From Vicinamibacterales bacterium (GTDB lineage Bacteria > Acidobacteriota > Vicinamibacteria > Vicinamibacterales > UBA2999): DNA of 64,000 nt. Shown piece by piece: positions 39,312 through 41,425 of the stretch. Positions within the stretch are counted from its first letter, which is position 1, and every line of letters begins with the position of its first letter. The translations under genes and the position numbers were made by a program. The stretch lies in contig JBBQSP010000021.1 of NCBI GenBank assembly GCA_038213735.1, positions 229 through 64,228 of the forward strand. The letters are read 5' to 3'. The notes below the pieces were generated by a model. It was not told the DNA's origin and did no database searches. It saw only the letters and a list, made by a program, of their open reading frames with translations.

Positions 39312-39349
39312 CGACAAACCGAAAGGTTTGTCGCCACGCACCGAAGTTA
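39312..39349. repeat. Single copy of the 38-nt palindromic unit (CGACAAACC-GAAA-GGTTTGTCG-CCACGCACCGAAGTTA)
   Basis: Matches the units at 17460-17536. The radical-SAM stop codon (TTA on the plus strand, 39347-39349) is the last triplet of the unit. Confidence 0.85.
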
Positions 39350-41425
39350 GTGCGTCGTCGGCTGCTGGGCCTTCTTCAGGCCCTGGATCTGCAGCACCGG
39401 CACGCCGGGCTGTTCCTTCAGCACTTCCTTGCGATAGAGCTTTTCCATCTCCGCGTGATGGCGCAGCTCATCGGGGGTCATGTTCTTCTTCTTCTGCGCC
39501 GCGATCTTCTCGTCGCGCGAGTTCTTCGCAATGCCCAGATCGTCGAGGTCGGTCTGGATGCCGGCGGCCACCGCTTCAGCGTTCAGCTTCAGGGTGTGCT
39601 CGTTGCTGCTGAGCGGCACCGACTTGTTGCCGGCGAAGATCTCGTGACGGCCGTGCTCGTCGTACCACTTGGTGAGCGTCGCCGTCATGTGCATCTTCTC
39701 GATGATGTTGCGCCAGCCGATGCCGGTGTTGTAGGCGCAGAAGGAGATCTCACCCATCTGCGTGGCATACGGGATGATGCACATCTCGGTGCGGCGGAAG
39801 TCGTAGTTGAACAGGTCCTGGAACCACATGCCCGCGATGAACAGGAAGTTCCAGCGATCGGCGCGGCGCTTGTCGATGTCGGCCTTGGTGCGATCGCCGC
39901 CGACCTTGCCGTAGTCCTTGGCGGTCGCGCCGAAGGTCTTGTCGAACTTCTTCAGCAGGTCGCTCAGCTTGAAATGCGTCGGCGACTTGAACGAGTCGTA
40001 ATTGCGCGCCAGCGCGATCGCCATGCCGGCGACGGTCAGGAACTTGCCGCGGGCCGCGTCGTTGACCATCGCGACGTCCTTGGCCAACTGTTCGGCCCTG
40101 AGGAACGCGGTGACCGGGACGGCTTCCTTGGTTTCCTTGTCGATCATCACGGCCATGCCGATGCCGCAGTTGGGGTGGCAGCCGCAGGTCAGGTTGCCCC
40201 ACTCGCTATCAGGGCCCTTGGCGACGTCGGCCCAGTCGGTGAACGTGCCCATGAACGAAATCGGGAACCAGTCGCGCACCGGCTCGCCGAGGCCCGTCTG
40301 GTTCTTCACGTCGTGCGCCAGGTGCGACAGCGTGTAGCGCTGCGCCGCGCGGCGCTCGGGCGTCACCTCTTCGTCGCGGCCGGTGAAGCTCACCGGCTGG
40401 AACGACAGGAAGTTGATCCGCTTGGGATTGTCGAGCGCGAACTCGATAATCCGGCCGACCTGCTCGTTGTTGACGCCGTTGACGATGGTCACGACCGGGA
40501 CGATGTCGACGCCGGCGCTGTGCAGGTTCTCGATCGCGCGCAGCTTGACGTCAAACAGGTTGCCGACGCGGCGGTGCGAGTTGGCCGCGTTGCCGATGCC
40601 GTCGAACTGCAGGTACGCGTAGCGCAGGCCGGCCTCGGCGGCGGCCTTCGAGAAGTCGGGGCTCTTGGCGAACTCGATGCCGTTGGTCGCGGCCTGCACC
40701 GACGAGTAGCCGACCTTGCGGGCGTAGCGCACCGCATCCAGGAAGTACGGGGAGAGCGTCGGCTCGCCACCCGAGAACTGCACCGACATCTGCCGCTTCG
40801 GCTTGATGGTGATGGCGTTGTCGAGCACCGTCTTGATGTCGTCCCACGTCAGTTCGTGCACGAAGCCGACCTGGTTGGCGTCCATGAAGCACGGGTCGCA
40901 CATCATGTTGCAGCGGTTGGTGAGGTCGACCGTCAGCACCGAGCCGCGGCCGTGCTTGATGGTGCTGCTGCCGTGGTTGTGCAGCTTCTCGTCGTTGTGG
41001 GCGCGGATGTCGCGGCCCGGGAACACCTCTTCGAGGTGCTTGAAGAAGGCGGTGTCGATGGCCATCGTGTCTTCGAAGTGCCCGTGGATGAGGCAGTCCT
41101 TCATCATCACGATCTTGCCGTCCTTCTCGTCGATGGTGGCCTTGATCTCGCCGACCTTTTCGTTGAGCAGGGTTTCAAGCGGGCGGGTGCCGTCGAGAAT
41201 GGCCTGGCGCGCTTCGCGCACGCACGTCGGGCACAGCGAGTCGGTCTGCCGCGGCCAGCCCAGGGGCGGCTTCGTCTTCTGATACGACTTCAGGAGGGGC
41301 TTGTCCGACCAGCGTGGCGTCATCGACGGGTTCTGGCTGATCTTGTTGAGCTGGGAAAAGATCTGCCACACCCCGTTGGCTGCGATCGACAAACCCTTTT
41401 CCGCGTACTTAATTGGCGCGTGCAT
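39347..41425 (-). CDS. Large radical-SAM enzyme, candidate tetraether lipid synthase (Tes/GDGT-MAS-like)
   Basis: Contains CNMMCDPC (CX3CX2C), an N-terminal CPTC...C-x2-HGHF metal-site-like pair and an extra CGCHPNC cluster motif. ATG 41425 is preceded by GGAG at a 5-nt spacing. Confidence 0.65.
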   Translation of the reverse strand: MHAPIKYAEKGLSIAANGVWQIFSQLNKISQNPSMTPRWSDKPLLKSYQKTKPPLGWPRQTDSLCPTCVREARQAILDGTRPLETLLNEKVGEIKATIDEKDGKIVMMKDCLIHGHFEDTMAIDTAFFKHLEEVFPGRDIRAHNDEKLHNHGSSTIKHGRGSVLTVDLTNRCNMMCDPCFMDANQVGFVHELTWDDIKTVLDNAITIKPKRQMSVQFSGGEPTLSPYFLDAVRYARKVGYSSVQAATNGIEFAKSPDFSKAAAEAGLRYAYLQFDGIGNAANSHRRVGNLFDVKLRAIENLHSAGVDIVPVVTIVNGVNNEQVGRIIEFALDNPKRINFLSFQPVSFTGRDEEVTPERRAAQRYTLSHLAHDVKNQTGLGEPVRDWFPISFMGTFTDWADVAKGPDSEWGNLTCGCHPNCGIGMAVMIDKETKEAVPVTAFLRAEQLAKDVAMVNDAARGKFLTVAGMAIALARNYDSFKSPTHFKLSDLLKKFDKTFGATAKDYGKVGGDRTKADIDKRRADRWNFLFIAGMWFQDLFNYDFRRTEMCIIPYATQMGEISFCAYNTGIGWRNIIEKMHMTATLTKWYDEHGRHEIFAGNKSVPLSSNEHTLKLNAEAVAAGIQTDLDDLGIAKNSRDEKIAAQKKKNMTPDELRHHAEMEKLYRKEVLKEQPGVPVLQIQGLKKAQQPTTH

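Follow-up and report, generated by a model that had tools for sequence, protein, structure and literature searches.

A Tes-like radical SAM protein without the N-terminal iron-sulphur cluster as a candidate synthase of membrane-spanning lipids in Acidobacteriota

A 64,000-nucleotide stretch of the genome of a soil bacterium of the order Vicinamibacterales (phylum Acidobacteriota; contig JBBQSP010000021.1), referred to here as the window, carries a complete gene for a 692-aa radical S-adenosylmethionine (SAM) protein. Profile searches and a predicted structure confirm this window protein as a homologue of GDGT-MAS/Tes, the lipid-coupling enzyme of archaea (MJ0619, MA_1486). By sequence it is classed as a peripheral, non-transmembrane member of the Tes/GDGT-MAS superfamily and not as a canonical Tes; it represents a subfamily, spread across the Acidobacteriota, that is predicted to lack the surface N-terminal [4Fe-4S] cluster ([4Fe-4S]N). 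We put at about 0.55 the probability that it joins iso-branched lipid chains tail to tail through a C-C bond, yielding lipids of the iso-diabolic acid or branched glycerol dialkyl glycerol tetraether (brGDGT) type. The label 'Tes homologue' has already been published for this gene family, and the idea put forward in an earlier reading of the bare DNA sequence (the original prediction) is therefore not new.

Family, fold and cofactor sites

Among the NCBIfam profiles Tes (NF045702) ranked first for the window protein, with an E value of 3e-91 and 306.5 bits over model positions 1-483 of 486. TrsS (NF045646) came second with 202 bits (family cutoff 490) over residues 93-378 only; it has the rubredoxin-like domain and the radical SAM core in common with the window protein, and the match does not include the C-terminal cluster and lipid-pocket domain. 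SPASM-type families reached at most 70 bits, over the radical SAM core only, and no cobalamin-binding (B12) domain was detected in the Pfam and NCBIfam profile searches. Among solved structures only GDGT-MAS (MJ0619, 7TOL/7TOM) matched over the full length, 7TOL with an E value of 3.5e-60 across query residues 93-578. An AlphaFold2 model (predicted local distance difference test score, pLDDT, 80.3; predicted template modelling score 0.83) was used as the Foldseek query and gave 7TOM (E 7e-34) and 7TOL (E 9e-33) as best matches, with target-normalised template modelling (TM) scores of 0.85-0.86 over ~555 columns; the next match, MoaA, reached a TM of 0.54 over the radical SAM core only. The resemblance to Tes/GDGT-MAS that had been read from the sequence is thus seen in the top family, the top sequence-matched structure and the top fold match, ahead of the SPASM maturases and class B methylases that had been named as competing families.

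In GDGT-MAS, Lloyd et al. (PMC9433317) described a rubredoxin-like site (C9X2C12X20C33X2H36), [4Fe-4S]N held by C73, C77, C80 and a His, the radical SAM cluster, and a C-terminal cluster ([4Fe-4S]C) with a labile ligand, Met439, and a strictly conserved Tyr459 nearby, the latter being conserved in 1,000 archaeal homologues. Roles in contacting SAM or 5'-deoxyadenosine (5'-dA) and in gating were assigned to Phe106, Arg210, Gln268, Ser271 and Arg275 (PMC9433317). As the three Cys ligands of [4Fe-4S]C are not numbered in the text of that paper, they were taken here to be the Cys conserved in all canonical homologues. Residues are given in native MJ0619 numbering, to which 20 is added in the PDB chain, as was checked on the aligned sequence. 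A scan of one genome per species of the GTDB returned at least 598 loci, and our phylum-wide comparisons (81 sequences) use the best 80 of them.

The alignment with MJ0619 places C172/C176/C179 of the window protein on C98/C102/C105, so that the radical SAM cluster site, the single CX3CX2C site of the original prediction, is kept. The rubredoxin-type pair it had recognised is likewise kept as C65X2C68...C111X2H114, with C65 and C68 in the motif CPTC and C111 and H114 in KDCLIHGHF, and aligns with the C/C/C/H of MJ0619. A 22-aa insertion between the two ligand pairs accounts for the spacing of X42 instead of X20. Further Cys clusters had been thought compatible with auxiliary iron-sulphur clusters, and these do include Cys aligned with the C-terminal auxiliary cluster region: C420 in LTCGCHPNCGIG (LTCGCHPNCG), C549 in MCIIPY and C563 in FCAYN correspond to C338, C455 and C470 of MJ0619, and the first motif holds two extra Cys of this domain, C414 and C416. 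The labile ligand Met439 is represented by M533 and Tyr459 by Y553. All of these radical SAM, rubredoxin-like and C-terminal-cluster ligands, and Y553, are invariant in the 81 phylum-wide sequences, and all 11 Cys of the window protein are invariant both there and among 121 close homologues. The contacts to SAM and 5'-dA are retained as F180, R286, Q343, S346 and R350, matching Phe106, Arg210, Gln268, Ser271 and Arg275 in turn; F180, Q343 and R350 are invariant in a set of 20 sequences.

There is no Cys between C111 and C172 of the window protein, and every canonical representative in the alignment keeps the C/C/C/H ligands of [4Fe-4S]N. The supposed layout match to MJ0619 and MA_1486 therefore stands for the radical SAM, rubredoxin-like and C-terminal-cluster sites and fails for the N-terminal [4Fe-4S] ligands (C73, C77, C80 and His); loss of auxiliary-cluster ligands, which had been named as an outcome that would speak against the assignment, is found for the N-terminal cluster, the Cys of the C-terminal one being kept. 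At the position of the missing cluster lies a His-rich loop, GRDIRAHNDEKLHNHGSSTIKHGRGS, which is one of the best-conserved stretches of the sequence (D145, H149 and H151 in 81/81 sequences, H143 in 80/81). It could conceivably bind a metal. The loop is modelled at a pLDDT of 51-55, and the radical SAM cluster loop is also of low confidence, as would be expected where a metal is needed for order.

Overall, the window protein is like GDGT-MAS/Tes (MJ0619, MA_1486) in its four-domain fold, its CX3CX2C, rubredoxin-like C/C/C/H and C-terminal-cluster Cys, its labile Met, its conserved Tyr, its SAM/5'-dA contacts (F, R, Q, S, R) and its stand-alone gene. It is unlike GDGT-MAS in its ~32% identity and sub-cutoff family score, in having an invariant His-rich loop instead of [4Fe-4S]N, and in its added residues: 22 inserted in the rubredoxin knuckle, and extensions of 57 at the N-terminus and ~90-110 at the C-terminus. 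The score of 306.5 bits against a Tes cutoff of 450, the absence of the N-terminal-cluster Cys and the two extensions are the grounds on which we do not class it as a canonical Tes.

The N-terminal extension, which is common to the related proteins P0135 and P0136, has a predicted, moderately amphipathic helix at residues 3-26. The C-terminal extension had been put at ~150 aa; it is in fact ~90-110 aa beyond the part aligned with MJ0619, and residues 569-611 form a conserved segment. A subfamily signature, GWRNIIEKMHMTATLTKWYDEHGRHEIFAG, begins at position 569, still within the C-terminal cluster and lipid-pocket domain. The charged tail that follows (~612-692) has the conserved motifs DLDxLGIAKNxR(E/D)EK and MxxLYRxxxLKE. 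The last 92 residues contain 15 K+R and 13 D+E. No transmembrane segment was found in the window protein; together with the basic N-terminal region and its amphipathic helix, and with the amphipathic helices of the C-terminal domain, this is in keeping with a peripheral enzyme for lipid-tail extraction.

Subfamily and distribution in the Acidobacteriota

A library-wide HMMER search gave 590 representative clusters at E < 1e-30, which sort into several groups; two architectures could be told apart. The canonical representatives are 32-37% identical to the window protein and 35-45% identical to MJ0619 (E 1e-103 to 1e-153), and they keep the [4Fe-4S]N motif CPxxCGxCxxH. The window type, comprising the window protein, P0121 (63% identity to it) and P0135 (42%), is without the N-terminal cluster and keeps the C-terminal one. 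Identity to MJ0619 is 29-34% in this type (about 32% for the window protein itself), with an E value of 3e-92 for the intermediate P0135 and values of ~1e-63 to 1e-66 for P0121 and for the window protein and its orthologues. Two segments are shared by the window type and not found in canonical Tes, WS(D)xPLxKxxxKxxPPLGxPR near the N-terminus and GWRxIxE...W...GRHxI(F/Y)A near the C-terminus. In a rough neighbour-joining tree the window protein falls in a tight acidobacterial clade with P0121 as its sister, and the canonical proteins and MJ0619 fall on the other side.

The closest relatives of the window protein (85-97% identity) are encoded in Vicinamibacterales metagenome-assembled genomes (MAGs), which places the window in Acidobacteriota subdivision (SD) 6. 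Across the phylum, the best 80 loci all encode full-length orthologues, tail included, at 74-90% identity. Their hosts are Vicinamibacterales (SD6), Bryobacterales (SD3), Acidobacteriaceae/Terriglobia (SD1) and Blastocatellia (SD4), as well as Ca. Sulfopaludibacter, Ca. Angelobacter and Ca. Acidiferrales. Bryobacterales and Acidobacteriaceae harbour orthologues at 75-76% identity; those of the Bryobacterales include a MAG labelled Ca. Solibacter usitatus, those of the Acidobacteriaceae/Terriglobia the cultured Acidipila rosea DSM 103428. An Edaphobacter MAG also carries a window-type protein (P0328). In genomes that share the flanking genes of the window, the Tes-like protein is 10-30 identity points above its syntenic neighbours, as at one locus where it reaches 87% and the neighbours 50-60%.

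Bacterial Tes homologues have been reported before. Zeng et al. (PMC8941075) listed 456 of them and proposed a role in brGDGT synthesis, among them homologues in Koribacter (42%, 1e-149), Solibacter (40%, 1e-139) and, as its single homologue, in E. aggregans (32%, 4e-61), an organism that makes iso-diabolic acid and brGDGT-Ia. For S. usitatus, Halamka Table S5 gives Acid_5929 (545 aa, 40.2%, 1.4e-139) and Acid_2410 (714 aa, 30.1%, 4.2e-62) against MA_1486. By these figures Acid_5929 would map to the canonical architecture, together with our representatives P0194, P0202, P0208 and P0264: bacterial proteins of the same superfamily, proposed for brGDGT synthesis, of ~500-680 aa, with the CPxxCGxCxxH motif and without the window-type C-terminal signature. 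Acid_2410 (Q025C7) and the E. aggregans homologue would map to the window architecture, as their length and their similarity to archaeal Tes (30-32% identity, E ~1e-61 to 1e-62) match it. Both come from brGDGT-making organisms. The literature treats them as plain 'Tes homologues' and does not mention the missing cluster.

As far as the searched literature shows, three points are new: that there is a separate architecture with no N-terminal cluster, a His loop and two extensions; that this N-cluster-less architecture is the form conserved phylum-wide; and that it sits at the detection limit of an influential survey with a negative outcome. That survey, by Sahonero-Canavesi et al., accepted homologues at E <= 1e-50 and identity >= 30%, and it may have missed the window type, whose identity of 29-32% sits on the latter threshold.

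Several relatives stand apart from this pattern. Three loci at 81-89% identity to the window protein belong to MAGs whose labels read Bifidobacteriaceae, 'proteobacterium' and Betaproteobacteria; mis-binning or mislabelling of Vicinamibacterales contigs is the most likely explanation, ahead of horizontal transfer. In the N-cluster-less P0135, P0487, P0489, P0492, P0495, P0564 and P0590 a Cys-rich C-terminal (G)CGSGCGCH replaces the charged tail, and one relative with this end comes from Polarisedimenticolia; the motif might be a metal site that compensates for the lost N-terminal cluster. The relatives from Thermoanaerobaculia end in a Pro/Ala-rich tail with LPVYGG..GK. Two divergent Tes-like paralogues, P0136 (locus L083, 8001-9875, Terriglobus roseus-type) and P0274 (locus L084, 8001-9779), are 37-39% identical to the window protein and lack some or all of the C-terminal cluster Cys, P0136 all three. 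Their unrelated contigs look like conjugative elements, with a TrwC relaxase, a TraG/TrwB coupling protein, a NikA-like protein and phage-type integrases. They would be degenerate relatives of a lipid synthase, kept as conserved cargo of mobile elements. As cargo of such an element P0136 has no bearing on the chromosomal gene, and it was dropped as evidence against a lipid-coupling function.

Proposed function and alternatives

We infer the substrate, the product and every mechanistic step as follows, by analogy with GDGT-MAS. The CX3CX2C cluster would cleave SAM to a 5'-deoxyadenosyl radical, and this would take a hydrogen from the terminal (omega) carbon of a lipid tail lying in the hydrophobic tunnel. 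The substrate radical would then be stored in a C-S bond to the C-terminal [4Fe-4S] cluster (C420, C549, C563 and the labile Met533). A radical raised by a second SAM on the tail of another lipid would attack this carbon and form a C(sp3)-C(sp3) bond. Two SAM would be used per C-C bond, as shown for GDGT-MAS (PMC9433317). The substrate cannot be archaeol, because the host is a bacterium that makes fatty-acid lipids; the chains joined here would be iso-C15-type acyl or alkyl chains of glycerolipids, and the products membrane-spanning lipids of the iso-diabolic acid type, which form the brGDGT skeleton. A reaction of this type has been demonstrated for Mss of Thermotoga and Thermoanaerobacter, a radical SAM enzyme that joins the tails of fatty acids to give diabolic acids. 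Mss belongs, according to the literature, to a different radical SAM lineage and has so far been linked to anaerobes; no Mss homologues were detected in acidobacterial genomes, and no Tes homologue was detected in Thermotoga (PMC13159169).

The distribution of the gene is consistent with this function. Iso-diabolic acid is made by SD1, 3, 4 and 6 (Sahonero-Canavesi et al., PMC13159169), the same subdivisions in which we find window-type orthologues. Aerobically grown Edaphobacter strains contain 12-30% iso-diabolic acid (PMC11354219), an abundance that fits a core, highly conserved gene with strong codon bias. SD6 has been proposed as a source of 6-methyl brGDGTs in alkaline soils, and Chen et al. 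suggested that SD4 and SD6 acidobacteria with Tes homologues be studied as such sources.

A number of observations weigh against tail coupling as the function. The ligands of [4Fe-4S]N are gone, the aligned positions being K147, H151, S154 and K157/H158, and since the role of this cluster in GDGT-MAS is not established the effect of its loss cannot be predicted. The 306.5 bits of the window protein fall short of the curated Tes equivalog cutoff of 450 bits (NF045702). Neither in the window nor at 82 related loci does a lipid-biosynthesis gene adjoin the Tes-like gene. Acid_2410 and the E. aggregans protein are tied to the window type by length and score statistics, not by compared sequences. 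The function of bacterial Tes homologues was still experimentally unconfirmed in 2025 (PMC11868695), which bears out the caution of the original prediction on this point, and no later demonstration appears in the searched literature to 2026. Of 14 acidobacteria producing iso-diabolic acid only 3 were found to have Tes homologues, and an alternative pathway was proposed (PMC13159169). N-cluster-less relatives are also present in Thermoanaerobaculia and Polarisedimenticolia MAGs, at 53-57% identity. Cultured members of SD23, which belongs to the class Thermoanaerobaculia, are not known to contain iso-diabolic acid. The gene is unconfirmed in cultured SD6 (Vicinamibacter, Luteitalea), Acidipila rosea being the only culture recovered by species name.

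The same radical machinery might instead carry out another reaction on lipid tails, such as intramolecular macrocyclisation, mid-chain cross-linking or ring formation, and leave coupling to the canonical Acid_5929-type paralogue where one is present. GDGT-MAS itself makes both macrocyclic (macrocyclic archaeol) and tetraether products (PMC9433317), the presence of both types in S. usitatus suggests that they are not redundant, and the window type differs from canonical Tes in cofactor content and extensions. What makes such a different reaction unlikely in our judgement is that E. aggregans makes iso-diabolic acid and brGDGT-Ia with a single Tes homologue, of window-type statistics (PMC8941075); that the pocket-adjacent equivalents of Met439 and Tyr459 and the ligands of the C-terminal cluster are unchanged in the window type; and that the enzymes known to form rings and cross-links, GrsA/B and Gms, are radical SAM proteins with names of their own.

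A substrate other than a lipid is an improbable alternative, in which the protein would act as the '7,8-dihydro-6-hydroxymethylpterin dimethyltransferase' of legacy annotation or perform some other radical reaction on a small molecule or peptide. Many JGI entries carry that name, no lipid genes adjoin the Tes-like gene, and the related TrsS, matched at 202 bits, is not described as a lipid enzyme. Yet TrsS matches residues 93-378 only, whereas alignment and fold agree with GDGT-MAS throughout the C-terminal cluster and lipid-pocket domain. Lloyd et al. were unable to reproduce the pterin methylase assignment of MJ0619 and demonstrated lipid coupling instead (PMC9433317), and the window protein has no detected cobalamin-binding domain and finds its best matches outside the methylase families. 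Scarcely any credence can be given to the gene being a canonical isoprenoid GDGT synthase acquired from archaea and making archaeal-type tetraethers. The best-characterised relatives are archaeal, but identity to MJ0619 is only about 32%, no archaeal lipid genes occur among the window ORFs (open reading frames) scanned, and, as stated by Zeng et al. (PMC8941075), GDGT production had not been demonstrated in any bacterium. A recent archaeal transfer is ruled out by the tight, phylum-wide acidobacterial clade and by a tree that roughly follows taxonomy.

We therefore keep tail-to-tail coupling of iso-branched chains as the preferred reading. A bolder version of it is offered tentatively, with the odds on the whole against it: that the N-cluster-less Acid_2410 type, and not the canonical Acid_5929 type, is the tail-coupling synthase of iso-diabolic acid and brGDGTs in aerobic Acidobacteria including SD6, and that the exchange of the surface [4Fe-4S]N for the His loop, together with the extensions, adapts the enzyme to oxygen-respiring cells. 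That the N-terminal cluster was given up in adapting to aerobic life is, for now, speculation.

Gene structure, surroundings and wider meaning

Table 1 Features of the Tes-like gene and its product, in window coordinates
Feature	Coordinates	Strand	Evidence or remarks
Complete gene, 692-aa Tes-like radical SAM protein	39347..41425	minus	ORF, G+C at third codon positions, Pfam, NCBIfam, 7TOL match, Foldseek
Shine-Dalgarno GAGGAG	41431-41436	minus	read from sequence; 5 nt upstream of ATG
N-terminal extension, residues 1-57	41255..41425	minus	not in MJ0619; net basic; conserved WSDKPLLKSYQKTKPPLGWPR motif
Rubredoxin-like zinc-ribbon domain, residues 58-121	41063..41254	minus	Pfam PF23545 ('HMPTM'), E 2.4e-10; putative ligands C65, C68, C111, H114
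His-rich loop GRDIRAHNDEKLHNHGSSTIKHGRGS, residues 137-162	40940..41017	minus	at the position of the [4Fe-4S]N loop; no Cys
Radical SAM core, residues 163-360	40346..40939	minus	Pfam PF04055, E 2e-17 (residues 168-330); GGEPT; SAM/5'-dA contacts
CX3CX2C site C172X3C176X2C179, in TVDLTNRCNMMCDPC	40889-40912	minus	motif read in translation
C-terminal auxiliary-cluster and lipid-pocket domain, residues 361-580	39686..40345	minus	alignment to MJ0619; includes amphipathic helices
C-terminal extension, residues 581-692	39350..39685	minus	conserved to ~611, then charged tail; tail modelled with low confidence
Second hairpin, 9 bp, between stop codon and terminator	39312..39333	minus	fold analysis
Intrinsic terminator	39267..39298	minus	14-bp G+C-rich stem, 4-nt loop, T-rich tail

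The reading frame of the original prediction was recovered as a radical SAM gene on the minus strand with a Radical_SAM Pfam match (Table 1). Coding sequence runs from 41425 to 39350, with the ATG start at 41425-41423 and the stop codon at 39349-39347. A GTG at 41431, given as the start by the ORF finder (694 aa), overlaps the Shine-Dalgarno sequence and is for this reason less likely. The G+C content at third codon positions (GC3) is 0.93, the highest and thus the strongest coding signal of the long ORFs in a window of ~66% G+C, and marks the frame as clearly coding. On the 5' side a 219-bp intergenic region is shared with a divergently transcribed amidohydrolase gene; a scan for sigma-70 promoters upstream of the Tes-like gene gave no match, and Rfam and tRNA scans of the whole window found no RNA genes. 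The gene had been described as standing alone between hairpins at 39269-39294 and 39312-39349. Both hairpins are present and the gene does stand alone, but both lie 3' of the stop codon rather than on either side of the gene, and the second ends at 39333. Folded jointly, the terminator and the 9-bp hairpin reach -51.3 kcal/mol (z = -6.0).

When the flanking ORFs of 83 loci were clustered all-vs-all, no neighbour family was conserved in more than 10 of them, and no partner that would reveal a pathway was found among the ~40 window ORFs (Pfam) or in the contexts of P0121 and P0135. The amidohydrolase, MsrPQ-like proteins and GTP cyclohydrolase I were considered as conserved partners and rejected, as they reflect local synteny only. 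From this, and from the nature of its neighbours in the window (a DUF485 protein and an ActP-type symporter downstream, a VTT/DedA protein and a family 2 glycosyltransferase (GT2) farther off), the gene is judged monocistronic and stand-alone. The DUF485 small membrane protein (38946-39236, minus strand) lies directly past the terminator, and its stop codon overlaps the start of the SSF/ActP-type cation/acetate symporter (37408-38946, minus strand). The two form a usual yjcH-actP-like pair, with no apparent connection to the Tes-like gene.

Only one gene set close to the Tes-like gene is membrane-related, an envelope cluster at 34571-37400, and it is not conserved beside that gene in other genomes. 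The cluster comprises the GT2 glycosyltransferase (34571-35263, plus strand), a protein of ~500 aa with many hydrophobic stretches and no Pfam match (35263-36792, plus strand) and the VTT/DedA-family protein (36789-37400, minus strand). Elsewhere, positions 2-8284 hold alpha-glucan/trehalose metabolism genes, namely a protein with a GlgE C-terminal and a maltokinase N-terminal-cap domain that runs off the window start and two alpha-amylase-family proteins, one with a CBM48 module. There are two beta-oxidation-type sets, at 22413-25636 and 54481-57792, one with a thiolase and a 3-hydroxyacyl-CoA dehydrogenase (3HCDH), the other with a thiolase and a fused enoyl-CoA hydratase/3HCDH. A branched-chain amino-acid-type ATP-binding cassette transporter is encoded at 57799-60475; branched-chain amino acids are generally held to be the primer source for iso-fatty acids, but none of these genes could be linked to the Tes-like gene. 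Long ORFs of high GC3 with no Pfam match at E <= 1e-4 lie at 5359-6639 (minus strand), 13694-15727, 9943-10782 and 30096-30830 (all plus strand). Another, at 33434-34549 (plus strand; no Pfam match at 1e-3), overlaps an alpha/beta-hydrolase ORF of the other strand and is perhaps not a genuine gene.

brGDGTs are the basis of widely used palaeotemperature and pH proxies for soils and lakes, and their biosynthesis and producers are only partly known. The bacterial 'Tes homologues' are split here into two architectures, and we regard the window-type enzyme as the leading, though partly anticipated, candidate for the bacterial synthesis of membrane-spanning lipids, the precursors of brGDGTs. If the proposed function is true, the window-type gene would be a concrete target for knockout or reconstitution. 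Soil metagenomes, in which it is extremely abundant, could also be screened for brGDGT potential with it as a single-gene marker, and its subfamily would amount to a natural experiment on the purpose of the N-terminal cluster of GDGT-MAS.

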